Assembly (NCBI GenBank): GCA_963806535.1
Contig: CAWDYC010000003.1
Span: forward strand, 256,001 to 320,000
Source: Candidatus Bathyarchaeota archaeon
GTDB taxonomy: Archaea; Thermoproteota; Bathyarchaeia; Bathyarchaeales; Bathycorpusculaceae
Direction of reading: 5' to 3'
Length of the DNA: 64,000 bases
Of the stretch, positions 21,361 to 60,380 are shown piece by piece. The notes under the pieces were generated by a model. It worked only from the letters and a program-made list of their open reading frames with translations, searched no databases and was not told the DNA's origin. A program made the translations under genes and the position numbers. The first letter of the stretch is position 1. The number at the start of each line of letters is the position of its first letter.

Positions 21361-21450
21361 CCATCTGACATAAGCCAAACGTACCCGCTCACTAAGAATT
21401 GTCAGTAAACATTATTCGTAATAATGTCTTTAAAGAGTTAGTTGGATAAA

Positions 21451-22187: not shown

Positions 22188-22274
22188 TTGATTAAAAGAT
22201 ATATCTTATTCAGACACATTTATATCCATAAAACCCCAGATAATCATTATAAACTAGAAAAAGAGAGAAAGTTT

Positions 22275-28001: not shown

Positions 28002-28067
28002 AAAATTCACTGGAAAATAGTAAACAAAAAGCAGGTAATAAGCTATACTAACTCGATATTGATTAGA

Positions 28068-32338: not shown

Positions 32339-33718
32339 ATGGAGCGATTTGACATCATCGTTATTGGCTCAGGCTCTGGAATGCTTGTAGCTTCAGCAGC
32401 AGTTGAACAGGGATTTCGAGTAGCGCTGATTGAGCATGGAAAAATGGGCGGCACATGCATAAACGTAGGTTGCGTGCCTTCTAAAATGCTAATTTACCCA
32501 GCAGACGTCATTGCCACTGTCAAAGAAGCAGGAAAGCTTGGCGTTAATGCAACATTGAATTCGGTCGATTTTAACAACATAATGACAAGAATGCATGAGT
32601 TGGTTAGTGAGGATTCAGGGCATCAGGCAATGGCGGTCGAAGCGACGTCCGAGATGACTTGGTTCAAGGAAACAGCCGAATTTATCTCCGATTACACGAT
32701 GAAAGTTGGCGACGCACACTATCTCGGCGGAGAAGATTTTCATTGTTTCAGGCGCACGCACCGCGCTTCCGTTAATCAAGGGAATTGACAAAATAGATTA
32801 CTTAACAAGTGACACAGTTTTAGAACTACAAACGCCGCCTAAGAGCATATTGATAGTCGGTGGAGGCTACATTGGCATGGAATACGGCCACTTTTTCGCA
32901 AGCATCGGCACAAAAACTACGATATTACAAAGGCCAGAGCGAGTATTGCCTGAAGAGGAACCTGAAATCTCTGAATTGTTAAAGAAGGAAATGAGTCAGC
33001 GAATGGAAATATACACAGGTTTTGAGGTTACTGAAGCCAAACAAGAAGGGCAAATTAAAACATTGATTGCCAGAAACCGCCAAGACGGCAGCCTACATGA
33101 GTTCTCAGCTGAAGCAGTAATGATCGCTACGGGCAGAGTATCCAACGCTGACATTTTAAAACCAGAAAAGACAGGCGTGAAACTTGACGATCACAATTTC
33201 ATAAAGGTCAACGAGTATCTGGAAACAAGCAAAAAGAACATTTGGGCTTTCGGCGACGCCATAGGCATCCAAATGTTTAAGCACGTTGCCAATTATGAAG
33301 CCGGCATTGCATGGCATAATGCCCTTCATGAGCATAAGAGCTAAAATGGATTTTTCAGCTGCACCCCACGCAGTTTTTACTCATCCACAAGTTGCTTCAG
33401 TAGGGCTTAAAGGAGCAAGAAGCTAAACAAAATCACAAAATCCTTGTTGGACAAGCTCTCTATAGAGATACAGCTATGGGTGCTGCTATGGGTTTTCCAG
33501 AAGGATTTGTAAAAGTGATCGTTGAACAAGAGACAGGAAAAATCCTTGGCGGACACATAATTGGTCCTGAAGCTTCAATTCTAATTCAAGAAATCATTAA
33601 TGCAATGGTATCTGAAACTGGAACCTTCGCTCCTATCGCTCAGGGCATGCATATTCATCCTGCGTTGTCGGAAGTGGTTCAGAACGCTTTTGGAAATCTT
33701 CACTCCCATGAGCATTAA
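32339..33718 (+). CDS. Flavoprotein disulfide reductase, dihydrolipoamide dehydrogenase/mycothione reductase-like (frameshifted)
   Basis: GSGSG, GGTCINVGCVPSK, GGGYIG, HIHPALSE. Confidence 0.9.
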
Positions 33719-36355: not shown

Positions 36356-36836
36356 ATGTCAAGCAAAATTAAAGTCGGAGACAAAGCACCCGATTTCACT
36401 TTACCAGACATCGATAAGAAGCCAAAGAAGCCTAAATGAGTTCTTAGGGAAAAAAATCGTTTTAGCATTTTTTGTAGGCGCATTCACATCAACATGTACC
36501 AAGGAAATGTGTGAATTCCGCGATTCAATGGCTCGACTTATCGATTTAAACGCTCAAGTTATCGGAATAAGTGTAAACGACCCTTTCAGCAACAAAGCTT
36601 TCGCCGAAAAAAACAGGCTACCATTCCCAATACTGAGCGACTATAAACGTGAAGTAATCAAAACCTATGGGTTGGAGCTGCCTAATTTTGCTGGACTCGA
36701 CGGCTACACAGTTGCCAAGCGATCAATTTTCATCCTTGACCAGAACGGCATAGTGCGGTATGTTTGGGTTTCAGACAATCCAGCGGTAGAACCAAACTAT
36801 CAAGAAATACAAAATATCCTGCAGCAAATCCCTTAG
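36356..36836 (+). CDS. Peroxiredoxin, BCP/PrxQ-like (frameshifted)
   Basis: GDKAPDFTL, AFTSTCTKEMC, KRSIF. Confidence 0.88.
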
Positions 36837-37089: not shown

Positions 37090-37954
37090 GTGTCCTTTGA
37101 AATCCAAGAGTTACCGGATGTTATCCGCGTTATTGTTCTGTTGAACTTAAGCAAAGGCGCTAAAATAAAAAAATCAGCCCTAAAAGCCCGAGTGGATCGA
37201 GTCTGCGTTAGCTACACCTGCGTGGAAATGGCAGAATTGGATAGAGCACTTAAAGAAATGTCGACTGAAGGACTCATTGTTGAAAAAGATGATTTCGTGC
37301 AGTTAACGCCACAAGGTCAAAAACTAGGCAAAGAATGGGAAAGTCTACTCTTAAAAAAAGAACCCATTATGGAAGTTGTAGCTGGTTTAGTTGATGGCTC
37401 AATAACCAGTCTAGTTGTTATTCTCTCAGCTTTCATAGCAACATTTACAGCCAGCACAGCATTCTTGGGTAATCCTAAAACCAGTCGTCTTCGCCGCCTT
37501 CTTAACGCTAAGCGCCGTTGCGGTAACCAACTTCTCAAGCTTTCTGCTTGGCGGAATCACTGAAGACTTAGCAGACATCATGACACTTCAGAACTTGATG
37601 AATTACAGCTTAAGCGACATACCTGACAAGAAAGAAAGGGATAAGTCATTACTGTTAACACAGAAACTTTTTACTTTACTTGGGAAACAAATACATAGAT
37701 CCAACCTTTTTGGAGCAATAATTTCTGGAACAACAACTTTCATTGCCGGAATTATTCCAATAGCAACTTACCTAGTGCTTCCACCTTACTACAACATTGG
37801 TGTTTCACTCTTTGAAGTTGGCATTATTTCGGGAGTGTTTCTGGCGCGGTACCGTTCAAAGAAGACTCGAGTAAACTGGAAAATAACACTTGCTGAAACC
37901 ATAGCCATTGTTATAATTGCAACAGTTGTATCTTTATTGCTCGGATTAATCTAG
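37090..37954 (+). CDS. Winged helix fused to VIT1/CCC1-like membrane domain (frameshifted)
   Basis: QLTPQG wHTH end; GLVDGSIT; AGIIP. Confidence 0.65.
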
Positions 37955-37959
37955 ACCAG

Positions 37960-38407
37960 TTAAACTAATCGATGATGCTCAACCATTAAACATTTATCCA
38001 TAACGACAATTAAACCGGCATGCCTAGCCATTTCAGCAGCCTGTTCATTCACTATTCCAAGCTGCATCCAAACAACAAAAGGCTTACCAAATATCTGCTT
38101 AAGCTGAATAGCTTGCTCTACTATCGGCGATCACATCTTTGGCTGGTCTAAAAATATCAACTATTTCGATGGTTTTCTGGATTTCAGGCGGAATATCAAG
38201 CAGGCTCTTGTAGCTTTTTTCGCCGAGAACTTCATAAGCAAAAGGGTTTACAGGTATAATTTGGTAGCCATGTTGTTTTAGGTAAGCGCTGACTCTATGG
38301 CTGTCCTTCTCAGGCTCTTTAGACAAGCCGACAACCGCGATTACCTTGTATTTTTCTAAGATTTCTTTAATCTGGTTTTGACTCAACTGAACACTTCCAA
38401 TCTGCAA
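37960..38407 (-). CDS. CoA-binding protein, YccU-like (frameshifted)
   Basis: IAVVGLS, IPVNP, VDIFRP, WMQLG. Confidence 0.88.
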
Positions 38408-45974: not shown

Positions 45975-48374
45975 ATGGCAATGCGAAACTACAAATGGCT
46001 ACTCATCGCACTCATTGTTCTCATTATTTTTCCATCATATCTTATGTCGGTGGCCTCAAGCACTAGTGCCATTTCAAGCGCCACAGACTGGACGACTTTT
46101 CGTCATGACCCAGAGCACAGCGGATATACGGGTAACGATAACCCAACTAACTCTGCTAAGCTTCTTTGGAGTTACCAAACAGGTCGAATGGTGCAGTCTT
46201 CCCCTGCAGTAGCGAATGGTTTCGTTTTTGTAGGCAGCAGGGATAGCCAATTATTCTGTCTCAACGCCTCTAACGGTGAAGCCATTTGGAAATTTCCATT
46301 TCACTCGGAAGTATGGTCTTCGCCAACGGTTTATGATGGTGTTGTTTATGTTGGTACGGATGACGGGAGTTTATACTGTCTAAATGTTACCAATGGAAAT
46401 CCTATTTGGGGATCGAAAGTTGGACGTGTCGTGCGGTCTTCTCCAGCAATCGTTGATGATAGAATGTACATAGGAGCTTGGGACCAAAGGATTTTCTGTT
46501 TGAACGCAACCGATGGGACTCCGATTTGGAACTACACAACCACATCTCGTGTACAATCCTCACCCGCTGTTTCGAATGGCATATTGTACGTTGCCACGGA
46601 TAACTATTATCTTTATGCTCTTAATGCAACGACAGGCGATGAAATATGGAGTCGCCACACTGGAAGCATCAATTCCTCACCCGCCGTAAACAATGGAGAC
46701 GTTTACATTGGATCATACGACGGCTACGTATACGCGTTAAATGCCTCAACTGGAGACCAAATTTGGAGATATCAAACAGAAGATTCAGTCGAGTCTTCGC
46801 CAGCTGTCGCGCATGGATGCGTTTACGTCGGGTCCGACAATAACAACCTGTATTGTCTAAATGCATCTACTGGCCAGAAAATATGGCAAAGCCCAACTGG
46901 ATATTGGGTCATATCCTCGCCTGCAGTTGCAGATGGCAATGTGTACGTGGGGTCAGAAGACTGCAACATTTATGGTTTTAACGCTTCAACAGGAGCGAAA
47001 CAATGGAGTTACACAACTGGAAATATTATCGAATCTTCCCCAGCAATAGTAAACAATACCCTCTACATCGGATCCGATGACCAAAATGTTTATGCTCTCA
47101 CCCTATACCAATCGACAATTAAGCCCTCACCTTCACAGTCTCCAACCGCTTTATCGTTGAGCACACTAACGTTTGATGGTATTGCATGCGCTGTCGTAGC
47201 AATCAGCGTTTTTGCATTAGTTCAATTTACTCGATCAACGAGGAAAACTAAGTCAATCAATGAAAACGTGAAAATGCACATCGAAAATGCACATTGGTAT
47301 AAAACGCACAGTGATGCACTTTTTGTTTTAGGAATTCTGGCTTTTTCAATAATATTTTACGTCAACTTGTCAAGTGGACATCTTTGGGCCGCCGATGAGC
47401 AAACATACTCTCAATGGGCATATCACATGGTTAAAACTGGGGATTATTTAACACCTTGGGCTTTTGGCGATGTCTCATTTTGGGTTGTGAAACCACCGCT
47501 ATTTATGTGGTTGATGTCTCTGTCTTACCAAGCCTTTGGCGTTAACAACTTTACCTCAAGACTCCCAAGCGCTATTTTTGGAAGTTTATCATTAGTTCTT
47601 GTTTTCTATTTAGGAAAGAAACTTTACAATTCAGTCACTGGGCTTATATCGGCCATAGTTTTAGGCACATTTACAACCTTTTACAATTTTTCAACTCACG
47701 CAATGACCGATGTCACTTTCACCTTTTTCATAATCGCCAGCATATACTTTCTTGTTATTGGTGAGAAACCAGAAAAAACAAATCGATATGCAGCCTTAAG
47801 CGGCGTTTTCTTTGGTTTAGCATTAATGACAAAACAACTTCAAGCTTTACTGATCCCATTAATTATCTTCACCTATCTACTCTTGTCGCAGAGAAGCATA
47901 AGATTTGTTTTCAAAAGACAGTTCACGCTTTTTTGGAGCGTTGGACTTCTGCTTTTTTCTCCATGGCTAATATACATGGTAGTTTCTTATGGATCGCCGT
48001 TTTGGCAGAACTATTTTGTTTACGCCGCCGTTACCCGTTCAGTCAGCCCCATTGAAGGTCACGCAGGAAGCTACCTTTTCTATTTCAGCTACCTAATCAA
48101 TAATGAATATTTATGGGCGATTTTGCTGCCTTTTGCTGCTGGGTTTTGCGCGTTCAAGGCGATTTTTAAGAACTCAAAAGCAGATGTTTTGGTCATAATC
48201 TGGATGGCACTTGTACTAATAGTGTTTACTTTTGCTCAAACGAAACTTTTCTGGTATATCCTGCCAGCTTTTCCAGCCTTTGCTCTTGCCATTGGGAGTT
48301 TACTGTATCAAATTTCAAAGAAAATAGCTTCACGCTATCCTCGGCTATACCTTGAAAAGCGGTTGAATAGCTAA
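45975..48374 (+). CDS. PQQ/BamB-type beta-propeller fused to GT-C (ArnT/PMT-like) glycosyltransferase
   Basis: Eight SSP.V....VYVG..D...Y.LNA..G...W repeats; then DE..Y, KPPL, RLPSA and many TM helices. Confidence 0.85.
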   Translation: MAMRNYKWLLIALIVLIIFPSYLMSVASSTSAISSATDWTTFRHDPEHSGYTGNDNPTNSAKLLWSYQTGRMVQSSPAVANGFVFVGSRDSQLFCLNASNGEAIWKFPFHSEVWSSPTVYDGVVYVGTDDGSLYCLNVTNGNPIWGSKVGRVVRSSPAIVDDRMYIGAWDQRIFCLNATDGTPIWNYTTTSRVQSSPAVSNGILYVATDNYYLYALNATTGDEIWSRHTGSINSSPAVNNGDVYIGSYDGYVYALNASTGDQIWRYQTEDSVESSPAVAHGCVYVGSDNNNLYCLNASTGQKIWQSPTGYWVISSPAVADGNVYVGSEDCNIYGFNASTGAKQWSYTTGNIIESSPAIVNNTLYIGSDDQNVYALTLYQSTIKPSPSQSPTALSLSTLTFDGIACAVVAISVFALVQFTRSTRKTKSINENVKMHIENAHWYKTHSDALFVLGILAFSIIFYVNLSSGHLWAADEQTYSQWAYHMVKTGDYLTPWAFGDVSFWVVKPPLFMWLMSLSYQAFGVNNFTSRLPSAIFGSLSLVLVFYLGKKLYNSVTGLISAIVLGTFTTFYNFSTHAMTDVTFTFFIIASIYFLVIGEKPEKTNRYAALSGVFFGLALMTKQLQALLIPLIIFTYLLLSQRSIRFVFKRQFTLFWSVGLLLFSPWLIYMVVSYGSPFWQNYFVYAAVTRSVSPIEGHAGSYLFYFSYLINNEYLWAILLPFAAGFCAFKAIFKNSKADVLVIIWMALVLIVFTFAQTKLFWYILPAFPAFALAIGSLLYQISKKIASRYPRLYLEKRLNS

Positions 48375-48518
48375 TTTCACGGAATCAAAATGTTTCTAAA
48401 TGAGACAACATCTTTTTTTCACTTTCAGTCATGTCTCTGCTGTTCTAAACATTTGTTTCTTCACTTGATTCTTAAGCATCCTCGAACTATAGGGGCGAGT
48501 TCTAGAGGGATTTTACAG

Positions 48519-48993
48519 TTGACGAAAGGTAAGCCTTGGCCCATTGAAGACGAAAAACAGTTGACCGATTGGTTCAATTCGAGCACTAAAGATCTTCGAG
48601 TGCTTGCTTTCTCTTTTGATGGCAAATACAGCGAGAATGCTATTTATCAGAAACTTTTGGATTTAGGACTTATTCAGAAAGAAGAAGAAACTCGGGGGGA
48701 GCACACTTCTTCTTCTTCTACTACTACTACTGGTTTTACTTCTTCTAAGCTTGAGTTGCCGGAGGAGCTTCCGAGTGTTGAAGAGACGCTTAAAACTTGC
48801 GGCTGCATTAGAGGCATTGAAGGCCTCAGGACTCAAAAGAGACGATATTTTACGTTTGCGAGGCATTATTTCGGGTACCAAAATCTACCAGGAACTATTA
48901 GCAGACTACATTAACTATCGGGCGCTTGAAGCTGAACTTTTAGATTGGAGACGTAAATATGAGGAGCTTGCGAAGAAATCCACGGACAGTTGA
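48519..48993 (+). CDS. HTH plus coiled-coil protein, putative terminase small-subunit-like (frameshift near 48797)
   Basis: MTKGKPWPIEDEKQL Myb/GcrA-like HTH; EEE...SSSS linker; helical C-terminus; overlaps terL start. Confidence 0.65.
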
Positions 48994-50409
48994 GGCTAAA
49001 ACTTTTAGGCCTAATCGATTGTTCCTTGAACGCGATCGATTACGCAAAGACATTGAAACAGTCGAAATCGCTGCTAAACTGAGAACTAAGGCTGAAACAA
49101 GTGACCCTTACAAATTTTTGCTTGATTACTGCAAACTAAAACCCTACAAGCATACACTTGAAATTGCCAAATTGTATTTTCAACATCAATTCTTGGCTGT
49201 CTGTTTGCCTCGGCAAACGGGAAAGAGTACCACAATAGGTGCTTTGATTTTGCAGGATGCATGGGAACACAATAACCTTACATCGGACTTATCGGGCCTA
49301 GCTGGCGACAGACAAAACTAAATCTGCTCAGAGTGGCTAACTTTTGCCGTAATCTCCCCCGACAGGGAATGCATATTCAAAGAACAAGAATAACCCTCCA
49401 AAACGGCAGCGTGATCGAGGCTTTCCCCAACAACGCCGATACAATAAGGGGCAACACTTTTGACAGGCTCTGGTGGGACGAAACCAACTTCACACCCAAC
49501 GACGAAGACTTGTATGACGCCATCTTGTTTACAATGAGCACCAAAAAAGACGCCAAATTAATTGCAACTAGCACGCCTTTCAACACCGATTCCCTGTTTT
49601 GGAAAATGTGTAACCACGAAGACTTTTCTGATTTTGGACGCTACCACATCTCTTGGGAACAGGCACTTGAACCCAACGGTCCGTTAAGCACAACAATAAT
49701 TGAGAAGATTAGGAGGCAGTTTGGTAATGACTCAACTAGGTGGCGTCGTGAGATGGAGGCTGAATGGGCAGAAGACGAAGATGTGTGGCTTGCCCAAAGT
49801 CTCATCGTCAGTTGCATAGATAGCTCACTTTTGCCTTATGACTTCCAGACCCAACCGCCATTTGGCGAATTTTTCATTGGCGTCGATTTTGGGAAGGAAC
49901 GAGATTACAGCATTGTGGTAGTACTAGAAAAGATAGGTTTCGTTTTGCGAGTGGTTCATGTCCACCGTTTTCCATTGCATTCAGAGTACGCAAGTGTCAT
50001 TGGATACGTCAAGAGCTTACAGGACCGTTGGAACAGCATTCACTCGGTCTACGCAGACGTAACAGGAGTAGGAAACTATATTGTTGAGGATATGTTCCGC
50101 AGTGGCATTCCCAATGTAATTGGTACAAACTTTACAGTCCAGTCTAAAGAAGAAATGGCAAATATCCTCAGGGAAAAGATGCGAGCTGGTGAACTAAAAA
50201 TTCCATATATCCCTACCCGAAAAATAGGAGACATTGACCTTACAGTTGAGTTAAATGTTGAAAAATATGAGCTTATGAAAACAGGGCACTTAGGATTTAG
50301 TCATCCCGAAGGCACTCACGATGATGTATTTTGGAGTACAGCACTTGCGGTTCTAGGTTCGGTTAGAACACCCATGCCAGGTAAAGGTGTTGGTTTTGTT
50401 TCGCATTAG
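48959..50409 (+). CDS. Terminase large-subunit-like ATPase-nuclease (frameshift near 49280)
   Basis: PRQTGKST, IRG, LWWDE, STP, GVDFG, DVTGVG, HDD. Confidence 0.9.
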
Positions 50410-50456
50410 CTTAAGGAAAAGAATTTGGAGATTGAAAAAAACTATGGTACTGGATG

Positions 50457-50499
50457 ATTGTGGTTGCTGGTTTGCTGGTGTACTGCTAAAGGGCACAAT
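50457..50499 (+). pseudogene. Remnant of a surface-protein C-terminal anchor sequence
   Basis: Reads IVVAGLLVY; DNA resembles 52290-52330 and 54862-54898. Confidence 0.6.
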
Positions 50500-50594
50500 A
50501 ATTATTTTGATCTTGAATTTTAATGTCGATTCAATTTCGTTAAATAAAGCAAAACATTTTCGAGTTTGCAATCGTCTAAGGCGTTTCAATTAGC

Positions 50595-50862
50595 TTACTC
50601 GTATGCTTTTTCACGCGTCGAAATGGAGTAAATAACTATTGTTTGATCTGTTGACAGCTCAAATAGTATTCTTACAGTTTTTCCTATTCTGATACGATAA
50701 TGGTTTTGATATCCATGCAGTTTCTTGATGTCTATTCTTGTTGAAAGACCCTCATCCTCTAAAGTTTTTAGAGCTATCATTATCCTATCCTGATTTTCTT
50801 TCGGAAAATTTTTTGAACTGCTTTTTAGCTTTGCTTTCTACAAAAACCAAATACTTGGGCAA
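50595..50862 (-). CDS. RelE/ParE-family toxin (frameshifted)
   Basis: IKKLHG...YRIRIG..RILF...REKAY. Confidence 0.88.
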
Positions 50863-50865
50863 ATG

Positions 50866-51093
50866 TTAGTTCCCTTTCGTCAATTCAGTCAAAGGTTCGA
50901 GGTGCAGCTTTTTGCTTCTCTTTGCAGTTTCATATTCTTCAATCGCTTTAACATCTTCTTTAGAGGGTTCTTCAAACCCGATTAACCTTTCTTCAACCAG
51001 CTCATTTAACCCTTGTACTTTCTTATTTAATTCCAACAGCAAACTCCGAATCTCTTTAAGTTCAGCTTCAGATGTCATATTTCTCAAAATCAA
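50866..51093 (-). CDS. Putative antitoxin
   Basis: Small acidic coiled-coil ORF directly upstream of the toxin. Confidence 0.7.
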   Translation of the reverse strand: MILRNMTSEAELKEIRSLLLELNKKVQGLNELVEERLIGFEEPSKEDVKAIEEYETAKRSKKLHLEPLTELTKGN

Positions 51094-51267
51094 ATAGCTT
51101 TCAGGAATATTTAACGGTTATCAACAAAACCACAAAAGAGTTTTTGCGGAAGACAGATTGTTTTCACGGAAGGTTAACCCGAACCCCTTATGTGGCAAGA
51201 GTTCAAAATTTTTGCATTTAACGATTCCACAAAATTTATGAGTAAACTCTGAAAAATACCTATACGC

Positions 51268-51320
51268 TTGTCAAGAAACCTGAACTAAAAAATTGCCATT
51301 TAGTTCAGAAATCTTGACAT
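51268..51320. repeat. Two copies of the TAGTCAA-N6-TTGACTA-like site forming a larger inverted repeat
   Basis: TTGTCAA-GAAACC-TGAACTA and TAGTTCA-GAAATC-TTGACAT. Confidence 0.75.
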
Positions 51321-51415
51321 GCCCCCTTTTATCAATGAGCTTTTCCAGAGATGTATTTTACCCGGCCTCACGGAACTACTAAAGGCTTAATAGCAATTAG
51401 GGCAAACTGAAAATT

Positions 51416-52336
51416 ATGAATAAATCGAATCGTCTGCTGATTTGCATAGTATTGACTTCAACGGTGTTTACGTGTAGCCTAGTACAAGTTAGGGCAGATG
51501 TTGTTTTTCAAGATAACTTTGAAAGCGGGAATTTCAGCAAATGGACAGTAGTCGGTTCGCCAAATATGGTTACAAAACCCATCTTAGACGGAAATGCCTA
51601 TGCAGCACAATTCGCATTAAACTCGACCGATACTCAACCTGGCGGAATTTCATATGGCATTTCATATTTGCAAGCAACTTTTCCGTCCTCAAACACAGCG
51701 ACACTTGAATTCTATTTGCAGACAGATACACTTTCTCAAAGTGGTTCCCTTGACGTGGCTGAAATAGCTAGTCCAAGCAATATTCCTCTGTCGCAGGACA
51801 CCCCTTTAATTTTCTTATCTATATTGCCTCTTAAGAATGGAAGTCTGGTGTGGGCTTTTACTTATCCGTCAGGCGAAAACACGCCAATTGGCAGTCAAAC
51901 CAGAGTAGACAATTTCTATACCAAGTACACCCAATCAAGCGTGCAAACAGACGCATGGTACAAATTCGACATTGCAATATCTTCTAGCAGTAATATAATT
52001 CAGCTATCAATAAACAATTCACCAGTATTTACAGCTACGAACCAATTCATTTGGAATCCAACTGTCTTCAAACTTGGCAACATTGAAAGTTATAATTATA
52101 GCAATGGAAACATCTACATTGATGATATAACGGTTTCAAATACAGCAAACATCTCTCAATTAGAATCAACTCCCTCACCAACGTTAATTCCAACAGCAGC
52201 CCCAACTCAAGCTTCTTCACCTTCACCAACGCCTACATCCACCATTCCAGAATTTCCAGTATTGACAACTCCAACATTGCTTATCCTGATGGTAGCTGCT
52301 GGTTTGTTAGTAAACCTCAAGAAACACAAGCGTTGA
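51416..52336 (+). CDS. Surface protein, beta-sandwich (LamG/lyase-like) domain, PEF-type C-terminal anchor
   Basis: Signal peptide, FQDNFESG, YIDDI, PT linker, PEFP-TM-KKHKR. Confidence 0.85.
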   Translation: MNKSNRLLICIVLTSTVFTCSLVQVRADVVFQDNFESGNFSKWTVVGSPNMVTKPILDGNAYAAQFALNSTDTQPGGISYGISYLQATFPSSNTATLEFYLQTDTLSQSGSLDVAEIASPSNIPLSQDTPLIFLSILPLKNGSLVWAFTYPSGENTPIGSQTRVDNFYTKYTQSSVQTDAWYKFDIAISSSSNIIQLSINNSPVFTATNQFIWNPTVFKLGNIESYNYSNGNIYIDDITVSNTANISQLESTPSPTLIPTAAPTQASSPSPTPTSTIPEFPVLTTPTLLILMVAAGLLVNLKKHKR

Positions 52337-52367
52337 AAACAATTGGTTTTGGGCTTGCAAATAAAAC

Positions 52368-52502
52368 GTCGCAAACTTGGACAAAATTGTGTCACTCAAA
52401 AAAAATTCTGAGTGGTTTGTGTGGTTTGCGAAAGACCAAGCTTGATTAAAAAAGAATTTAGTAGAAGTTGCGTGTTTCTTTGTGTTTCTCGGCTTCGTCA
52501 TA
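52368..52502 (+). repeat. Downstream cassette repeat copy 1
   Basis: TCGCAA..ACTCAAAAAAAATTCTGAGT..TTTGCGAAAGA..AATTTAGT.GAAGTTGCGT..CGTCATA; homologous to 54911-55029. Confidence 0.85.
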
Positions 52503-52680
52503 GAAGCGCAGAACTTCATCAACGATTTCAACATTTGAGAGCAAAATGCCTCTGCTAACTAAATGCCTCAGAAAGAATTTCCACTACATCCAAATGGATT
52601 CTAATACTGGACTCCTAAAAAGAAAACTTGGCCCAGCACCGCCCGTGCCAGTTATCGCAAAATTTTATTCTTTTGAAAAA

Positions 52681-53046
52681 CTATAGGTCGTTAAGAATTT
52701 TTTTGAATTGCTGCTGCAAATTTGGTAAATCGGTTATTGCCGTGTTCCACATAGAAGGCCAATCTGCACTAAAGTATTCATGAGTGAGTTCATGTCTCAT
52801 TCCGCATAGTTTTTCATAAGGTATATGATAGTAATAGAATAGCTCCTTCACTTTTTTGTTTTTTGAAACTGCCCAGACAGCTTCAGAAATATCTCGCAAA
52901 ACATCCTTCAATGCATGCATTCTTATTTTTTGTTGAATAAACGCCTCATACGTTAATCCATATGTTATTTCTTTTAGGTCATCGATGTACTCTAGAATTT
53001 CTTTAACGTATAATTTAGGATCTCTGCGTTCCAAATTTTTCGTCAT
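52681..53046 (-). CDS. HEPN RNase toxin (DUF86/HepT)
   Basis: RxxxxH motif MRHELTHEY. Confidence 0.88.
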   Translation of the reverse strand: MTKNLERRDPKLYVKEILEYIDDLKEITYGLTYEAFIQQKIRMHALKDVLRDISEAVWAVSKNKKVKELFYYYHIPYEKLCGMRHELTHEYFSADWPSMWNTAITDLPNLQQQFKKILNDL

Positions 53047-53357
53047 ACGTTAACAGCTTCTTTTAAAACCTGATCTCTTATGTGCTTATTCAGAAATTCT
53101 TTTGAAATTACATCTACTTTCAGATGTAGCTTTCGCTTAAGATACTGTTTTAAGTCATAAATCGTGAAAAGGCTAACAGCTGCCGAATACGTAACCAAAA
53201 TATCCAAGTCACTCTCCTCCGTTTGTTCTTTTCTGGCAAAGGAACCAAAAATATCAATGGTTTCAATGCTGAACCTTTTCTTCAAAGTAGGCTTCAGTGC
53301 TTCAAGTTGCAATTTGACTTCTTCCAGTGACTTTACTTCAAAGGTCTTTTGAACCAA
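53043..53357 (-). CDS. Minimal nucleotidyltransferase antitoxin (MntA-like)
   Basis: FGSFAR.EQ...SDLDILV. Confidence 0.9.
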   Translation of the reverse strand: MVQKTFEVKSLEEVKLQLEALKPTLKKRFSIETIDIFGSFARKEQTEESDLDILVTYSAAVSLFTIYDLKQYLKRKLHLKVDVISKEFLNKHIRDQVLKEAVNV

Positions 53358-53519
53358 ATCTTTTCTTCGCCCTTTTCAGTTGAATTATGTATTATTTTTT
53401 GCTAATAAGGATTTTCGGTTCACCAATGATTTACAAATTCCACTAAAACTTCTTGTTAAATTAATTTGGGAGCACTCAACTTTGTTTTTGCTTTAAGGCT
53501 TTGTCGAGCAGGAGGAGGA

Positions 53520-53552
53520 TAGTCAATAAATCTTGACTAATCGCAGTCAAGA
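53520..53552. repeat. Perfect TAGTCAA-N6-TTGACTA palindrome plus extra half site
   Basis: TAGTCAA-TAAATC-TTGACTA then CAGTCAAGA. Confidence 0.8.
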
Positions 53553-53599
53553 CCCCTTTACGAGAAACCTTATAACAAAAACTGGTTCCAGATGTAAGT

Positions 53600-54904
53600 A
53601 TGGGTAGTTTCAACAAGAGCCTTTTACTATTTCTTACCCTTGCCCTATCCATTTCAAGCCTCTTAGTAGCTGATACTATCCCAGTTGGATTGGCTCAAAA
53701 CGGTACAAACGTCAACAGCGGAATAATAAACTCAGATACAACTTGGACCAAAGCAAACAGTCCCTATAATCTTACAGGTCCTGTAGCTATAAACCAAGGA
53801 GTCACATTAACCATAGAACCTGGAACAATTGTCAACCTTAATTATTTCTACATACAAGTAAACGGCACACTAATGGCGCAAGGAAGCTTGTCAGACCCCA
53901 TTATTTTCAATGGAGACAGAACAGGTGATGCCGTTCTTTCTTACGTTAACTTTTCACAATCCAGCAACAACTGGAATGAACAAAAAGAAACCGGCAATAT
54001 AATCGAAAACTGTCACATTAATGAAATCTCAATAAATGTAAATAACGCTTCACCGAAAATAAATAACAACCAAATAACCTCTAAAGAAGTATCGTATAAG
54101 GAAGGTGGAGGAATTTTCGTAAACGGTGGCGACCCAATAATTTCAAACAACAACATTAAAGCCAATGGAGCAGTTTCGATTAGTAACGGCTCACCTCTCG
54201 TTCAAAAAAACACGATCAGCGGATTTATGGGAATAATAGTAAGCGCAGGTTCACCGATAATTGCAAATAATGTTATGACTGGCATTGAATTTACAGGATG
54301 GACCACTGCAATTTCTTTCCCAGACGGAAGCACAGGCGATTCATATATTTCCGACAACACCATCAGCAATTATGACTTCGCAATTCAAGTGGTTCATTGC
54401 AGTAACATTATAACGATTCAAAGAAACCTCATCAATAACAGTACAATAGATACCTCTCAATCACAAGTCATAATTCAAAACAACACCCTAACGAATGCAT
54501 TGATTTACGTACATGCGGGACCAATCATAACTTATAATAATTTCCAAAATAACGTGAAGATTTCGTTGACAAGCTCAAGCAACGTTATCGCAACTTACAA
54601 CTGGTGGGGAACAACCAACCAGCAAGTAATCAACGAGACAATCCATGATTACAAGAACGATTTCAACTTAGGAACAGTAAACTTTGTCCCATTCTTGACA
54701 GCACCAAACCCGCAAGCAATTCCTAACATAACCGCATCAATTCCAACGCCTAATGTATCATCTTCTCCGATTTCAACGACTACCCCAGCGACTACTTTAA
54801 CGCCGACGGTTCCAGAGTTTCCATCATGGACAACCCTATTGCTAGCTGCTCTAATGTTGACGGGTGCCGGTTTGCTGGTTTACTTCAACAAACACAAACC
54901 CTGA
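53600..54904 (+). CDS. Surface protein with right-handed beta-helix, PEF-type anchor
   Basis: TWTKANSPY..LTIEPG, I.NN.I repeats, NWWG, PEFP-TM-NKHKP. Confidence 0.88.
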   Translation: MGSFNKSLLLFLTLALSISSLLVADTIPVGLAQNGTNVNSGIINSDTTWTKANSPYNLTGPVAINQGVTLTIEPGTIVNLNYFYIQVNGTLMAQGSLSDPIIFNGDRTGDAVLSYVNFSQSSNNWNEQKETGNIIENCHINEISINVNNASPKINNNQITSKEVSYKEGGGIFVNGGDPIISNNNIKANGAVSISNGSPLVQKNTISGFMGIIVSAGSPIIANNVMTGIEFTGWTTAISFPDGSTGDSYISDNTISNYDFAIQVVHCSNIITIQRNLINNSTIDTSQSQVIIQNNTLTNALIYVHAGPIITYNNFQNNVKISLTSSSNVIATYNWWGTTNQQVINETIHDYKNDFNLGTVNFVPFLTAPNPQAIPNITASIPTPNVSSSPISTTTPATTLTPTVPEFPSWTTLLLAALMLTGAGLLVYFNKHKP

Positions 54905-54910
54905 AAACAG

Positions 54911-55029
54911 ATCGCAATCTTGAATAAAATTATATTACTCAAAAAAAAATTCTGAGTGTTTGCGAAAGAACAACCTTAATTAAGAAAAATTTAGTGAAGT
55001 TGCGTACTTCTTGCGTTTCTTGCGTCATA
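54911..55029 (+). repeat. Downstream cassette repeat copy 2
   Basis: Aligns with 52368-52502. Confidence 0.85.
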
Positions 55030-55164
55030 TCCTCTTCACCAGTAATTTTTGAAAGGGGTTGCTGAGGCTCTTGAACAGACTAAAAGAAGAAGAGAAAAAA
55101 GCATTCACAACTTCTACAAACATCACATAATTAAAAGCTCACTTAAATCAAAAAGTGTATAACC

Positions 55165-55869
55165 TTAGGATTCTTTTCGTCTTGTCGTTATGACTCTAAC
55201 TATTACAGCCAAAGTTACAACAATTGCTAGCACAGCAGCGGTAATTAAGGCAACTGAATGTTGAATATAGAAAGGTAAGTTACTTTTGGTAGGCAAACTT
55301 AAGCCAAAATGCGCAATCGTAACATTACTGGCTGCAGAGTTGATGATCAATGTATTGTCGGGCAGGAGATTCCAACCTTGACCTTCGGCGAGAACATCAT
55401 TTTTGGGAATGATTACGCTCCACTCGGCTGGCTCAGTGGGGCCTGATGAGTTAAGGTCAAAGTTAACCATTTGCTGACCTTTGCCTTCCACTGTATAGCT
55501 CAGTAAGCTTACGGAAAATGAGTTATTGACTGTAACATAAGCCAATATTGTAACATTTGAATCCTGAGTAGAAATCGTCAAATTTCCAACGCTCTGAATA
55601 TCGTTTATTCCGAAACCGGGCATGCTTTGATTATTCAATGTTAAATCCGTGAATGTCCAGGTGTTATTCTTCAATGCTACTTCTGAATAGGAACCGTTTA
55701 CTGCAAAACTGATTGAGCCGTTAAGGTTGGGAATGGTGAATTTGTCGGCGCTTGTGAAAGTCTGGTTCGTTTGGGCTTGTGAAGTTGGAAAATAACAAGA
55801 AATTACCAATACTAATATGATAACCGCTCCTAATCCTATCAGGGTTTGTTTGTGGGTAGTTTTCTTCAA
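55165..55869 (-). CDS. Secreted, C-terminally anchored hypothetical protein
   Basis: Signal peptide, NxS/T-rich, terminal TM plus RRK. Confidence 0.8.
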   Translation of the reverse strand: MKKTTHKQTLIGLGAVIILVLVISCYFPTSQAQTNQTFTSADKFTIPNLNGSISFAVNGSYSEVALKNNTWTFTDLTLNNQSMPGFGINDIQSVGNLTISTQDSNVTILAYVTVNNSFSVSLLSYTVEGKGQQMVNFDLNSSGPTEPAEWSVIIPKNDVLAEGQGWNLLPDNTLIINSAASNVTIAHFGLSLPTKSNLPFYIQHSVALITAAVLAIVVTLAVIVRVITTRRKES

Positions 55870-55895
55870 ATCTTATCGCAGCACAAGAATTCTGT

Positions 55896-56909
55896 TCAAA
55901 ATGGAGTATAAGGCTTTTCGACGTTAACGCGAGTATGCAGTCTCAACGGGTTAATTATTGCTTTTTTCGGTACTTTTCGTCGATAGACAAACATTGCCAC
56001 TACAATGGCTATAAATGCAATCGAAATGGCGATAACTGGAAGGACAATTGAAGCGTTAAATAGCCGTTGATTGGCGTTTGGTTCAAGAACGGTTGCGTTG
56101 TTGGGGTAACCTTGGCTTTCCCAGTATCCAAGATAGTTTGAATCGTTCGAAACGTTGATTTCCGTTAACCACTCAATCCATTTGTACCCATACTGGTTTT
56201 TAGCTACTAGAAATAGAGGCCATCCCGTTCGGTCTGTTAGGGTAACGTTGTTCATTTTGTAGGCTATTGTAATATTGTTCTGTTTCACGTAGCTCAATGG
56301 TAGAGACGTTGAGTAACCGTCTTTTGCCAAGAAAATCAGAGTTGTTGCATTTGGGCTTACATCTACGTGCTGAAGAAGGTCCTCGATTTGTACCCCTTGC
56401 CATAATAAGGTTACACTCCATCCTTCCACACAGGGAAGAGTAGCCACTTGCAGAGTCGAATTGAAGTTGTTAACGATGTCATCGTAGCTATAATTTGTTG
56501 GGTTATTTAAGAGGCCAGTAATTGCTAATTGGTAGGTTGCTCTATCCAGGCTCTGTGTTCCAGCAATTGCAACGTCAGGATGCTCATTTAGATAATCGAT
56601 GTAAACACTAATGGGTGTTAGATTTTGGCCTTGATACTGACTTACTTCGTCTGGGAAAAGAGAAGATGTTGGTGTCGGATGTGAGATGAGAGTGGAGGTT
56701 GGAGTTGAAGTTGGAGTTTCAGTCGCTTTAATTGTTGAAGTTGGAGTTTTTCCGGTTGGAAAAGAAGTCGAAATAGGCGTTGAGGAAGGGGATGGAGTCG
56801 ACGAAGACTTAGAAAAGTTTTGAACAAAAAACACCACTGAAATAATTAATATGATAGCTACGAAAAGTAAAATCAGAATTGTTATCTTATTTCGTTTAGA
56901 AATTTCCAT
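55896..56909 (-). CDS. Membrane-anchored sulfite-oxidase-family molybdoprotein
   Basis: LPCVEGWS..WQGV, DGYSTSL, GWP, YGYKWIEW, GYWE.QGY. Confidence 0.88.
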   Translation of the reverse strand: MEISKRNKITILILLFVAIILIISVVFFVQNFSKSSSTPSPSSTPISTSFPTGKTPTSTIKATETPTSTPTSTLISHPTPTSSLFPDEVSQYQGQNLTPISVYIDYLNEHPDVAIAGTQSLDRATYQLAITGLLNNPTNYSYDDIVNNFNSTLQVATLPCVEGWSVTLLWQGVQIEDLLQHVDVSPNATTLIFLAKDGYSTSLPLSYVKQNNITIAYKMNNVTLTDRTGWPLFLVAKNQYGYKWIEWLTEINVSNDSNYLGYWESQGYPNNATVLEPNANQRLFNASIVLPVIAISIAFIAIVVAMFVYRRKVPKKAIINPLRLHTRVNVEKPYTPF

Positions 56910-57480
56910 CTATAATTCATTATTATGAAAGTTGTATTTATCGGTAACGAAACGCTCTATTTTTTGCTCACGGCAGCTTAGCATCAACATTTATTTCATA
57001 ATTTTTTCAATAAATATACATTGTTTCCTGAACCATGAATGAGACAAGCTCCATAGGATTTGAATTATTTTTGGTTCAAATCGATATCAACACTTTTTCA
57101 AAAAACATTTCTGGCGTTAAGATTGGTCGGATAACTATTCAACTAATCTTAAACAAAAAGCAAACAGAGCCAAACCTATTATGCTTAAGAATGACGGCCC
57201 ACTGGGAATGCAACTCCATGAAGCGATAAGTACACAACTCCTTTTCGGCTAACGAGAACGAATAAAGACCGTTGACCATATCGATTAATGCGAATAAGTT
57301 ATTTTAAGGTCCCTCCTGCAGGTGGAAAAAGTGGATATTTGGCATTTGTTTTGCTCTTGCCTCTTCTTCGAAATTATCACGCAATATGGCGTCAGGATCG
57401 ATGGTTTGATCCAAAAAGAATTCTTTAAACTTAGGTTTTATAGCAAAGTAATGCTTAGTAGGTGTTGGGAGAAAACAGGT

Positions 57481-57789
57481 TTGGAATATTTACTTCTCTT
57501 AATTTCTATTCTAGTAACATGTATAATCTTAAACTTGGGATTCAAACTTCGAATTTTTGAATCATCAAAACAAGAAGTGATTGTTCTTGTTTCACTTTTT
57601 ATTATTGGAACTGTTTTAGACAGCTTTGCAGTGTTGAGAGGATATTGGAGCTATAGTGAAAACGTAAACTTTTTTGTAGGAATAAAAATCGGTGTGTTGC
57701 CGATAGAGGAATACCTATTCATGATAGTTATTCCCTATCTGACATTAACAATCTTCGGATTAATAAGAAAAACAAGCGCAGTTCATTAG
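57481..57789 (+). CDS. Lycopene-cyclase-domain membrane protein
   Basis: D..AV..G.W.Y, G.LPIEEYLF. Confidence 0.78.
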   Translation: MEYLLLLISILVTCIILNLGFKLRIFESSKQEVIVLVSLFIIGTVLDSFAVLRGYWSYSENVNFFVGIKIGVLPIEEYLFMIVIPYLTLTIFGLIRKTSAVH

Positions 57790-58007
57790 TAATAAAGCCA
57801 AATCTGATTTTGCAGATGTAAACTGACCTTTATTTCAGTTTCGCATCAGTTTTTATTATCAAAATAGAAAAAGTGGCATGCCACCAACATACAAATTTTC
57901 GAAAAAGATGAAGAATGAAGAACTTGAACTCACAGCCAGAATAAATGATATGCAGTATTTTTCTGCGGAAAACAACGAATCCGAGTTGATTATATTTCTG
58001 CTGAGCA

Positions 58008-58442
58008 TCATAACGGAGAAGCGGAGGAAGGATAGCGGCCCATTGCTTCCAATATTTCATCTGAGAACGATGTTTTTCCGAGATTTCGCACAAAATCGGA
58101 AGCCACAACTATCCCAACTAACTTGTTCTGCTTCAAAACCGGAAGTCGCCTAATCTGATTATTTGACATCACTCTAGCAGCTTCTTTAAGTGAAACATCA
58201 GGATCAATCGTTATAAGAGTTTTAGACATAATTCCCGAAACTTTGGTTTCTCCAGGCAATTTTTTCGCGCAGACTCTTCGGACGATATCTCTTTCAGTAA
58301 CTATGCCAACAGGAACTTCGCCATCCATGACTACTAAACACCCCAGTTGATTAGAACTCATAAGCTCCGCTGCTTCAAAAACGCTATTATTAACGTCGAT
58401 TGAAACAACATCTTTTGTCATAATATCTTTCACTGATGGCAT
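58008..58442 (-). CDS. CBS-pair protein
   Basis: VKDIMT, GIVTERD, IRRLPV. Confidence 0.92.
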   Translation of the reverse strand: MPSVKDIMTKDVVSIDVNNSVFEAAELMSSNQLGCLVVMDGEVPVGIVTERDIVRRVCAKKLPGETKVSGIMSKTLITIDPDVSLKEAARVMSNNQIRRLPVLKQNKLVGIVVASDFVRNLGKTSFSDEILEAMGRYPSSASPL

Positions 58443-58510
58443 AAGCTTTCTTAAGAAGAATCGACCTAAAAAAGATTTTTAGGTCTCATTAAAAACTAAA
58501 GGGAAGTTTG

Positions 58511-60190
58511 CTATGCGTTTTCTGCGGATTTTGGTTGTTCATTAACGTATTTTCCGCCTCTAAACGCAGAGCAAACCGCAGCTATAATGCACAATACCGC
58601 ACCGATAATGAACGCTTCTCTAAGGGCAGTCATGAATGGTGCTGAAATCGCATTTGGGAAAAACGTTGATCCAGTGAGATAATTCATCGTTGATGCGGGT
58701 ATAGAGCTTACTAACGAAGCAGGAAGGGTGTGAAGTATAGTTGCGACAGGGTTGTAACCAAGAAACGCTCCAAATAGAGCGCCTGAGGCTGGAGTAGAAC
58801 TGAAGACGTGTGCAAGCTGCGGAGATGCACCAGCACTGGTAACTGCCGCCGTAAGGGCACCCGGAAGAGTTGCGCTAAGCGACACTATGATAATAGTGAA
58901 AAATACAGCCTGGCTTATCATCATCGCACTATTCTGTATGGTCGCACGCATTCCAGAAGCTGCACCTCGACACTCTGCAGGGATGGAGTTCATTATCGAT
59001 GCCATGTTAGGAGAAGCAAACACTCCACCACCAATTCCCATTACAAAAAGTACTGCAGCAAATGCTAAGTAAATAAAATCTACAGGAAGCAACACGAAGC
59101 CTATGAAAGCAACTGCGGAAATCACCATGCCTAAAGTAGCAAGCAACCTCGCTCCATGCTTGTCTGAGAGCCAACCGCTGATTGGCCCAGTTAAAACAAA
59201 ACCTATTGACATAGGAATCATGAAAATTCCAGCCCAAAATGGTGTCGAATCAAAGCTGTAGCCGTGGAGAGGAAGCCAAATCCCCTGAAGCAGTATAATG
59301 AGCATAATCATGACTCCCCCTCTTGACATTGAACTGAAAAATGAAGCAAGGTTACCAGCAGTAAATGCTCTTATCTTAAACAGATCAAGCCTAAACATTG
59401 GCTCAGCAACATGATTCTCTATGAATGGAAAAGCAACTAGGAGACTTACGCCTGAGACAAGGGAAGTAATGACCCATGGATTAGTCCAACCCATAGACGA
59501 GTTTCCATACGGTATTAAACCGTAGATGAAACCTGTCAAAACCAGTGTTAAGCCACCACCAAAAGCTATGTTGCCCCAAACATCCAACTTCTGGTGTTTC
59601 TTGATGTTGCATTGCTCTTTAAGCTTCAAGTATGACCAAACGGTACCTATCACGCCAACCGGGACACTTACCAAAAATACTAGCCGCCAGTCAATAATCG
59701 CTAAAACTCCACCAAGAACTAAACCAATTAAAGAGCCGGCAAGAAAAGCTATCTGGTTTATTCCAAGTGCTTTTCCACGTTCGTTACTTGGAAAGGCATC
59801 AGTTATTATTGCAGCACTATTTGCAAAGAGGAATGCACCTCCGATTCCCTGAACTATTCTGAAAACTATTAATTCGATGGCGCCCGCGTTACCTTGATTA
59901 GGGGTTATTGAAAGTAGTATCGAGCCAACCGTGAAGATCAGGAACCCAAGGTTATAGAGCTTCACCCGCCCAAACATATCCGAGAGTCTGCCAAAAGTAA
60001 CAAGCAATGTCGCCGTAACAATGCTGTACCCGAACAATATCCATAGCATATACTGGAAAGATGAGAAAGGATCAATGTTGATTCCTCGGAAGATGGCTGG
60101 CAACGCAATCATAACGATAGTGCTATCTATTGAAGCCATTAAAATGCCAAGAGTCGTATTCGAAAGCGCAACCCACTTGTACTCAACCAA
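58511..60190 (-). CDS. MFS transporter (14-TM DHA2-like)
   Basis: GRLSDMFGR, FPSNERGKALG. Confidence 0.92.
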   Translation of the reverse strand: MVEYKWVALSNTTLGILMASIDSTIVMIALPAIFRGINIDPFSSFQYMLWILFGYSIVTATLLVTFGRLSDMFGRVKLYNLGFLIFTVGSILLSITPNQGNAGAIELIVFRIVQGIGGAFLFANSAAIITDAFPSNERGKALGINQIAFLAGSLIGLVLGGVLAIIDWRLVFLVSVPVGVIGTVWSYLKLKEQCNIKKHQKLDVWGNIAFGGGLTLVLTGFIYGLIPYGNSSMGWTNPWVITSLVSGVSLLVAFPFIENHVAEPMFRLDLFKIRAFTAGNLASFFSSMSRGGVMIMLIILLQGIWLPLHGYSFDSTPFWAGIFMIPMSIGFVLTGPISGWLSDKHGARLLATLGMVISAVAFIGFVLLPVDFIYLAFAAVLFVMGIGGGVFASPNMASIMNSIPAECRGAASGMRATIQNSAMMISQAVFFTIIIVSLSATLPGALTAAVTSAGASPQLAHVFSSTPASGALFGAFLGYNPVATILHTLPASLVSSIPASTMNYLTGSTFFPNAISAPFMTALREAFIIGAVLCIIAAVCSAFRGGKYVNEQPKSAENA

Positions 60191-60304
60191 GGTTTTTCAC
60201 TGAAATTTTATTGGATGTGTATAGTGTGAGATAAAAAGATTGTCTCGCAAGCCCGGGTTTCAGAATAGCACGTACGACCCCTTTTCCTCTGAAAATGAAT
60301 TAAG

Positions 60305-60380
60305 CGGGCCCGCTGGGATTTGAACCCAGGATTCTCGGCTCCGGAGGCCGATGCCTTAATCCGTGCTAGACTACGAGCCC
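60305..60380 (-). tRNA. tRNA-Arg(CCG)
   Basis: GGGCTCG/CGGGCCC acceptor stem, TCGGC-CTCCGGA-GCCGA anticodon arm, GGTTCAAATCC T arm; CCA not encoded. Confidence 0.95.

Follow-up and report, generated by a model that had tools for sequence, protein, structure and literature searches.

The closest described counterpart of the system reported here is the holoterminase of tailed viruses, which joins a small (TerS) and a large (TerL) subunit, as with gp16 and gp17 of T4. The C-terminus of the large terminases studied so far docks on the portal. Packaging genes are also found in phage satellites: Staphylococcus aureus pathogenicity islands (SaPI) and other phage-inducible chromosomal islands (PICIs) carry terS, and there are capsid-forming PICIs. 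Gene transfer agents (GTAs) encode their own heads and tails, and lateral transduction, with packaging in situ from a prophage pac site, has been described for complete prophages. TerL, TerS-like partners and provirus remnants are all known already. Here we describe a small gene (c1) and a TerL gene that stand together without virion genes on a 64,000-nucleotide stretch of a Candidatus Bathyarchaeota archaeon genome (assembly GCA_963806535.1, contig CAWDYC010000003.1, positions 256,001 to 320,000). This whole stretch is called the window below, and coordinates without a prefix count from its first letter. We see an even chance that the pair is the packaging module from the attachment-site-proximal (att-proximal) end of a provirus lineage, maintained alone and probably acting with the capsids of related viruses, a function that we infer from the sequence comparisons below.

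The two genes resemble a TerS-TerL holoterminase in that TerL has the same two-domain build and motifs, and in that the small, candidate DNA-binding gene overlaps the TerL start, as terS does. They differ from it in having no adjoining portal, capsid or tail genes, and c1 falls into no TerS family. The nearest relatives outside the window's own clade are head-tail proviruses of Bathyarchaeia (L020, L024, L049 and L053, at 47–62% identity), which share the c1-TerL order and overlap, whereas their ABC-ATPase/GNAT, capsid, scaffold, tube, neck and tape-measure genes are absent from the window. As in phage satellites, packaging-specificity genes lie in the chromosome beside a tRNA gene; dependence on another virus is a proposal here. 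Unlike SaPI and PICIs, the pair has a full TerL, is archaeal, and comes with no integrase, excision control, replication module or att repeats that we could find. An initial annotation of this DNA, made from the letters alone, had suggested a satellite packaging module, and this is not supported in the classical form, whose integrase, att repeats and replication module were not found. As in GTAs and lateral transduction, a resident terminase could package in one direction from a fixed site, and the variable side begins after the TerL stop. Unlike GTAs, this genome has no head or tail genes that we could find, except for a remnant with tape-measure and neck genes on contig C11; with capsid, protease/scaffold and portal genes not found, the GTA-like form of the suggestion is not supported either.

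A terminase pair with complete catalytic motifs

The pair lies at 48519–50409 on the plus strand and consists of two genes, the 3' end of c1 overlapping the start of TerL by 35 nt.

48519–48993, plus strand: c1, small gene with a TTG start, presumed small-terminase-like partner (open reading frames, sequence)
48959–50409, plus strand: TerL, large terminase with ATPase and RNase H-like nuclease domains (Pfam, PHROG and profile matches)

In the assembly, TerL is read in two frames. The C-terminal frame (49333–50409, 358 aa) matches Terminase_6N at 33 bits (Pfam curated cut-off 22), Terminase_6C at 28.9 bits (cut-off 22.6) and the PHROG TerL family phrog_2 with an E-value of 1.9e-27. The N-terminal frame of 120 aa contains the Walker A motif and matches TerL PHROGs weakly (E 5e-4 to 7e-4). 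Searched against solved structures, a profile of the TerL orthologues matched T4-type gp17 (E 1.3e-18) and thermophilic-phage TerL, both in the nuclease domain (about 3e-12) and in the ATPase domain (about 1e-7). The translations of the window gene contain QTGKST, LWWDE and TSTP, which we take to be the Walker A, Walker B and coupling motifs of the ATPase, as well as the acidic sites of the nuclease (GVDFG, YADVTG and THDD). These motif columns, including D310, D367 and D455/D456, are invariant or nearly so in the alignments of relatives. The complete ATPase and RNase H-like nuclease motifs that the initial annotation had reported are thus borne out by Pfam scores above the cut-offs and by the conserved columns. 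In orthologues at 84–94% identity, TerL is one unbroken frame of about 483 aa; their contigs reach 1.7 Mb.

In the c1 protein, a Ser/Thr-rich linker connects a Myb/SANT-like three-helix domain at the N-terminus to a long helix at the C-terminus. An AF2 model of an orthologue (pLDDT 77) has helices at 9–49 and 90–160, a disordered linker and a C-terminal helix of 50 residues. Short, high-probability Foldseek alignments of this model are to Myb/SANT-type DNA-binding domains, which is suggestive of the fold class only; a small-terminase chain at rank 8, with an E-value of 1.1, was not taken as evidence. The Atlas puts c1 among unnamed, mostly viral clusters (0.97), and its Terminase_5 lead is weak (0.81). 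The c1 cluster lies directly upstream of TerL in 49/84 loci. We therefore call c1 TerS-like by its position and predicted build, not by family membership. Prediction of a c1-TerL complex scored 0.02 against a mark of 0.32, which is no evidence either way. Read from the sequence, the locus is a self-contained two-gene packaging cassette, with a candidate DNA-binding small subunit and a TerL with complete catalytic motifs.

No portal, capsid, tail or integrase gene was found within 10 kb of the pair by Pfam and PHROG scans of open reading frames of at least 100 aa and of three smaller ones downstream (other frames below 100 aa were not scanned). The pair had been described as an orphan lacking precisely these neighbors, and so it is over this distance.

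Lone pairs recur across Bathyarchaeia and descend from head-tail proviruses

The TerL family is large and typical of Bathyarchaeia. A protein search gave 1718 proteins at E ≤1e-5 among 2883 candidates. From the genome collection, 245 related loci were confirmed and 80 kept, and the open reading frames of these 80 loci and of the four loci of this genome (2144 proteins) were clustered. Neighborhoods were counted for those TerL genes that have at least 8 kb on both sides (56 of 85). At least two structural families lay near 27/56 TerL genes, which are counted as lying in head-tail proviruses, a single structural family near 4/56, and the ATPase/GNAT neighbor only near 3/56. The remaining 22/56, including all four copies of this genome, had no structural family nearby; besides these four, the bare arrangement occurs at 18 further loci.

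The proviruses have a major capsid protein (Phage_capsid_4, PHROG major head), a scaffold/cement protein, a tail tube, a neck protein and a tape measure. Their TerL is followed by an ABC-ATPase/GNAT fusion (cluster c2, in 47/84 loci), at the place where a portal is usual; a first assignment of this gene as the portal was wrong and was dropped. By a motif, the gene before the scaffold and capsid genes (c4) looks like a prohead protease with a scaffold tail; it has no family match. The proviruses come in two gene orders that look like circular permutations of each other, and in one of them c1, TerL and ATPase/GNAT form the last block of the integrated genome. A 463-aa provirus gene that clustered with TerL in some proviruses was rejected as a terminase and left out of the counts: it is linked to TerL only through one fused frame of 825 aa, matches no PHROG or Pfam family, and has no homologue in this genome. 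The fused frame (L051:8732-11209) joins the N-terminal part of the 463-aa gene to TerL, and stems either from a deletion within a provirus or from a join made in assembly.

We built an IQ-TREE phylogeny of 78 TerLs, leaving out the 463-aa non-terminase group and frames above 560 aa. Orphan and provirus TerLs are intermixed in the trees, and no sequence feature separates the two. Among the 46 labeled rows, the provirus/orphan label changed at least 12 times, and eight of these changes are forced by well-supported branches. The cassette descends from head-tail (Caudoviricetes-type) proviruses of Bathyarchaeia. An intermediate stage is seen at L087, where two tail-side genes remain upstream of the pair and a 59-aa piece of ATPase/GNAT downstream. 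Within the genus, 50/61 genomes have a TerL match, with up to seven in some.

Four lone TerL loci in a genome without matching head genes

The genome (2.95 Mb in 12 contigs, 91.75% complete) has four TerL loci, 25–55% identical to one another, each with a small gene just upstream.

48959–50409: the window copy, split
C5:121616-122918: split, 55% identity to the window copy
C7:333353-334825: whole, 490 aa, 31% identity to the window copy
C3:384855-386159 (C3b): whole, 434 aa, 25% identity to the window copy

No virion gene lies within 10 kb of any of them, so a survey of the paralogues and their neighborhoods returned four loci, all without structural neighbors. At C3b the order (C3:382776-386400; L008, L009) is a ParB-like gene, a split ABC-ATPase/GNAT (phrog_11143), the small gene, TerL and a tRNA 3' fragment, with PIN toxins further downstream.

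A search for capsid and portal profiles elsewhere was likewise negative: Phage_capsid, Phage_portal, SPP1_portal and Phage_capsid_4 (PF05065, PF04860, PF05133 and PF25209) had no match genome-wide at 92% completeness, and neither did a profile of the protease/scaffold-like gene of the related proviruses. A tblastn search of this genome with members of 29 provirus neighbor clusters found no head gene, and the major capsid protein and the tube had no match. It returned only an isolated homologue of the small gene on C10 and the remnant on C11, where tape-measure and neck (tail completion) genes stand without head genes. The C11 locus, with an integrase near the end of the contig (C11:213700-216000 and C11:228820-229713; L095), is a second kind of provirus remnant in this genome.

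Purifying selection on an entirely orphan clade

The window copy groups with L014–L019, one of which (L016) is split and was placed by DNA only, outside the trees. The window clade, six rows in the tree, has a support of 100 in FastTree and of 98 (SH-aLRT) in IQ-TREE. None of its members has virion genes beside TerL, and two have a single stray tail-cluster match about 9 kb away. The phylogeny thus places the window copy in an entirely orphan clade, within a family that changed state at least 12 times. Five of the six members keep a TerL frame of 483–503 aa. DNA homology between the window and the clade loci starts at 48505 or 48519 and stops at 50412, covering the pair only. Upstream of the pair the relatives carry an extra, uncharacterized gene of 158 aa (c29), which the window lacks, and beyond it host genes (DnaJ, pirin, thioredoxin, LigB and NAD kinase). 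The left contexts of the window orthologues differ. The loci L014:3427-11452 and C7:333353-339800 (L011) have different TerL types near the same host genes (LigB, NAD kinase and PIN_6) in two genomes, a region that may be a shared insertion hot spot.

Selection was estimated pairwise by the Nei-Gojobori method. Within the window clade, omega for TerL was 0.05–0.12 at dS 0.4–1.7, the values being approximate where dS exceeds 1. The window TerL taken by itself gave 0.14–0.17 for the N-terminal fragment and 0.05–0.06 for the C-terminal one, and the two fragments of the window c1 gave 0.13–0.36. Median omega for TerL was 0.07–0.09 in three other orphan clades and 0.03 and 0.06 in two provirus clades, and omega for c1 was about 0.25 in orphans and proviruses alike. 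A further group, of type-A proviruses, was not used: its dN of 0.6 probably reflects a mixture of paralogues. By these values, selection is as strong on the orphans (0.05–0.12) as on provirus copies (0.03–0.06). A 1.45-kb frame that stays open at such divergence requires selection, and because whole clades are orphan, much of this selection acted in the orphan state. By these estimates, purifying selection keeps the cassette intact where synonymous sites are saturated, and the lone pairs probably still work.

Relaxed selection on this copy or real frameshifts, together with homologues sitting mostly in complete proviruses, had been named beforehand as what would speak against an orphan module. 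The proviruses hold 27/56 of the well-flanked TerL genes, and selection is as strict as described above; the frameshifts, discussed below, are likelier to be assembly errors. Of the signs expected of a decaying remnant, descent from a provirus lineage was found; relaxed selection, stops in the inferred reading and mixed indels were not. What stands of the initial suggestion of a domesticated module is a real orphan that is recurrent (22/56), belongs to a clade that is orphan throughout and is under selection; its GTA-like and classical-satellite forms lack support. Its further idea, that the adjacent cassette region is mobilized, would fit the data in one respect, in that related genomes vary on the side just past the TerL stop.

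For all their divergence (25–55% identity), the four TerLs of this genome share the C-terminal tail P-G-x-G-x-x-F-x-x-H. This tail, as P-G-x-G-x-x-F/M-x-x-H, is also found on many TerLs of one provirus type; the other provirus type has MEPEPFL-x-V-I-P-R. If docking of the C-terminus on the portal holds here, the orphans would still be fitted to one kind of capsid.

Several lone pairs are followed by tRNA-derived fragments

A fragment resembling a tRNA 3' end lies 40–90 nt past the TerL stop in eight loci (L074, L077, L080, L081, L082, L014, L015 and L016). In the last three, which belong to the window clade, the fragment is 60–90 nt after TerL. In L025 a whole tRNA-Gly lies at +235 from TerL, and the C3b TerL of this genome is followed by a tRNA 3' piece.

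The setting is most detailed in the orphan clade of L074, L077 and L080–L082. Its members share a 2.2-kb block that starts about 100 nt before c1, extends 52 nt beyond the TerL stop and ends inside a 22–25-nt copy of a tRNA 3' end, with the whole tRNA following in L081. This block is 96–97% identical across the genomes of different species, against 83–93% in the adjacent 4–5 kb (4/5 comparisons), and in these pairs TerL dS (0.09–0.19) is below the dS of all syntenic flank genes. Relatives that share 5–10 kb of left flank diverge completely from just past the TerL stop, and left homology borders lie just upstream of c1 in several independent lineages.

The tRNA-derived fragment after several lone pairs looks like the relic of an attachment site. 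We read the pair as the att-proximal end of an integrated element, with later insertions or exchanges at the same tRNA site.

The window pair lies in a variable island beside a tRNA gene

In the window itself, the pair is held by an island that was delimited by comparison with relatives.

48375–60303, no strand: variable island holding the pair, 11.9 kb (comparison with relatives G004 and G013)
50410–50479, no strand: spacer after the TerL stop (blastn homology ends at 50409–50412; compared by eye)
60304–60380, minus strand: tRNA-Arg (CCG), its 3' end forming the right border of the island (ARAGORN; Rfam tRNA, 56.4 bits)

The PQQ/PMT gene and the tRNA-Arg are about 65 nt apart in G004, and in G013 unrelated genes fill 5.7 kb at the same site. 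The match to three relatives picks up again precisely at 60304, where the tRNA-Arg, 9.9 kb beyond the pair, turns its 3' end to TerL. The island has no integrase or replication gene between its borders, and an Rfam scan of the window found only the tRNA.

To the left of the pair are a radical-SAM gene and a PQQ-propeller/PMT_2 glycosyltransferase (45975–48374). To the right are a RelE/ParE-like toxin (50595–50780) with a small partner, a HEPN/MNT pair, two secreted surface proteins with a common C-terminal anchor, a molybdopterin oxidoreductase, a CBS protein and an MFS transporter. Pfam and PHROG scans agree with the glycosyltransferase and the toxin-antitoxin and surface genes that had been named as flanks from the letters. 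The nearest integrase-like frame is 40 kb away (6961–8142, 393 aa; Phage_integrase at 26.8 bits, cut-off 27.1). It adjoins a stretch of low GC content (8000–12000; 0.30–0.34 against about 0.40) whose frames belong to no family, and the two may be another integrated element.

About 40 nt of the spacer still resemble the spacer of the orthologues when compared by eye. Its last 25 nt (50455–50479) resemble the 3' end of the nearby surface-protein genes and form a direct-repeat family, D1, with 52287–52311 and 54855–54879. Around the latter two copies, a conserved stretch of about 130–190 nt (52287–52560 and 54855–55012) spans the last codons of the anchored surface-protein genes and the non-coding DNA downstream. 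This stretch has about ten copies in the genome, is present in many relatives and matches no Rfam family; it may serve those cassettes in recombination or regulation.

Frame breaks in the window copy

Both c1 and TerL are read in two frames in this assembly, with one short deletion apiece at base runs. An alignment with five intact orthologues shows two indels and no more in the 1.9-kb pair, each of which shifts the frame. The break in c1 is a 2-nt deletion near 48798, where the window reads TTG and the orthologues TTTGG. In TerL, 1 nt is missing within 49269–49280. The alignment places this deletion at 49269, which would leave a TAA (49273–49275) in frame. A deletion after that TAA would instead have shortened a T run and let the protein read through sensibly, so the inferred pre-deletion reading of TerL has no premature stop if the missing nucleotide lies after 49275.

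Ordinary genes are broken in the same way. The Pyr_redox_2 gene is a 213-aa frame in this assembly and 460–496 aa long in 7/7 matching relatives, and a P-type ATPase has 486 aa here against 707–714 aa in its two closest orthologues. By Pfam coordinates, PAP2, VIT1, AhpC, rubrerythrin, Ham1 and CoA-binding genes of the window are also split or truncated. Split or truncated ordinary genes lie at 13998–14658, 21442–22090, 22188–24388, 27702–28010, 32339–33344, 36507–36836, 37090–37954 and 38099–38407. The earlier remark that the breaks are of the indel type also seen in core genes thus proved accurate.

Because core genes are broken here and whole in relatives, we consider that both frameshifts are likelier to be assembly errors than decay, which falls short of proof. 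The public reads found comprise four runs from one study (contigs only, shares 0.05–0.15), with no RNA data set listed, and cover neither frameshift site. Overlapping same-strand open frames were tried as a proxy for frameshift load and abandoned, with 11–20 per 100 kb in all groups and no separation of the assemblies. Gene-level readings of this genome should allow for indel errors.

Discussion

The reading that we favor, with the even chance stated at the outset, takes the pair for a provirus lineage's att-proximal packaging module, which is maintained alone and probably acts with the capsids of related viruses. Under the mechanism that we propose, c1 would recognize a site in or near its own gene and recruit TerL, which would cut the DNA and pump it into procapsids of a related virus, whether infecting or co-resident. 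Two outcomes would follow, singly or together. The DNA downstream of the cassette could be transferred in a helper-dependent manner, from a platform resembling that of lateral transduction, which would fit a hypervariable island that starts at the TerL stop. The pair could also compete with the virus for its capsids.

Several observations weigh against this reading. The small gene c1 has no Pfam or PHROG family, either as the window gene or as an intact orthologue, and belongs to no described TerS family; Foldseek gave its model no match in the PDB at E ≤0.001. No att-type direct repeat, copy of the tRNA end or terminal inverted repeat above chance was found around the pair or the island. On the related complete proviruses, too, the Pfam portal models fail, so the statement that no portal is present rests on three Pfam portal and capsid models together with family-specific head genes, and the completeness of the genome, only 92%, limits the absence of virion genes. 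The omega values are approximate at high dS. The pair has two breaks in 1.9 kb, against about one per 6 kb estimated for the window. Because this density exceeds that of the window, a real inactivation of the window copy is possible, with both genes broken at sites that the reads do not cover. Only 3/60 other genomes of the genus (G009, G040 in two places, and G052) carry an orthologue at least 84% identical to the window copy, a patchy distribution more in keeping with an accessory or mobile element than with a fixed host function. The many TerL fragments in the genus also mean that decay does happen.

Such decay is the basis of the first alternative, in which the pair is the inert leftover of a degraded provirus: its att-proximal end would have survived by chance, the window copy would be a pseudogene, and the low dN/dS would come mostly from time spent in active viruses. 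Both genes are broken, and the pair lies in a tRNA-side island without an integrase. The intermediate L087 and the TerL fragments of the genus would fit such a process, and the orphan state arose many times (at least 12 changes, eight of them forced). This explanation accounts poorly for the window clade, which is all orphan and yet keeps the 483–503-aa frame in 5/6 members at dS 0.4–1.7 with low omega. Nor does it account for the TerL fragments of the window copy, with omega of 0.05–0.17 and no stop in the inferred reading, for the housekeeping genes that the same assembly breaks likewise, or for the left borders that fall just upstream of c1 in several independent lineages. We regard an inert leftover as unlikely.

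If selection maintains the pair without virion genes, it might do so for a function other than packaging. The pair could, for example, be a helix-turn-helix-guided, ATP-driven nuclease that cuts incoming viral DNA in defense or exclusion, and its place among toxin-antitoxin pairs, a typical setting of defense islands, and the several divergent copies in the genome would suit such a role. However, the whole of TerL is conserved, including the C-terminal tail common to provirus TerLs, as expected if capsid docking matters. Orphan TerLs are also indistinguishable in sequence from viral ones. A repurposed nuclease is, in our judgment, improbable.

The two-gene unit might itself move or recombine, exchanged between genomes as a cassette whose breaks would possibly be made by the RNase H-fold nuclease of TerL; this view is partly compatible with the packaging module. 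It would explain the sharp homology borders at both ends of the pair in three lineages, the L074 clade with its cassette more alike than its flanks in identity (4/5 comparisons) and in TerL dS, and the different left contexts of the window orthologues. On the other side, no terminal inverted repeats or target duplications were seen, a 14-nt inverted match from 48519 being no longer than chance pairs, and the flanking glycosyltransferase genes may evolve or recombine faster. To our knowledge, no TerL acts as a transposase. We give this explanation a slim chance.

That the pair is no orphan at all but part of a functioning virus or element, with structural genes that escape the profiles used or lie elsewhere in the genome or in its unassembled 8%, is very improbable: the failure of Pfam portal models on related complete proviruses, the 91.75% completeness and the tape-measure/neck remnant and integrase near the end of C11 leave some room for it, but family-specific queries (major capsid protein, protease/scaffold-like, tube and others) find nothing in the genome, the left neighbors are host genes syntenic in relatives and the right ones ordinary island genes, and a further 18 loci, with 8 kb or more on either side, show this bare arrangement too.

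Beyond the packaging module itself, a bolder proposal can be made, which we hold to be unlikely as it stands. Terminase-only cassettes could form a distinct class of helper-dependent elements in Bathyarchaeia, and perhaps in many prokaryotes. Such an element would consist of a TerS-like protein, TerL and a packaging site at a tRNA att site. It would hijack the procapsids of related viruses that infect the cell and package headfuls in one direction into the island, spreading surface-protein, toxin-antitoxin and defense cassettes while sapping the virus. If so, Archaea would have their first satellite-like element or transduction platform based on a terminase.

Our literature search found no description of selectively kept, multi-copy, terminase-only pairs in Archaea, and none of a terminase-carrying satellite or transduction platform there. 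In the consulted passages of PMC6393860, PMC11697101, PMC11529989 and PMC10848311, lone terminases are not treated; the supplements of PMC11697101 might list TerL copies in Bathy-6 genomes.

TerL is a widely used hallmark of tailed viruses, and about two-fifths of the well-flanked TerL genes here stand alone, so counts of viruses and proviruses based on TerL would be inflated in these abundant sediment and soil archaea. Should lone pairs work with capsids from passing viruses, Archaea would have one more route of gene transfer or a form of interference with viruses.

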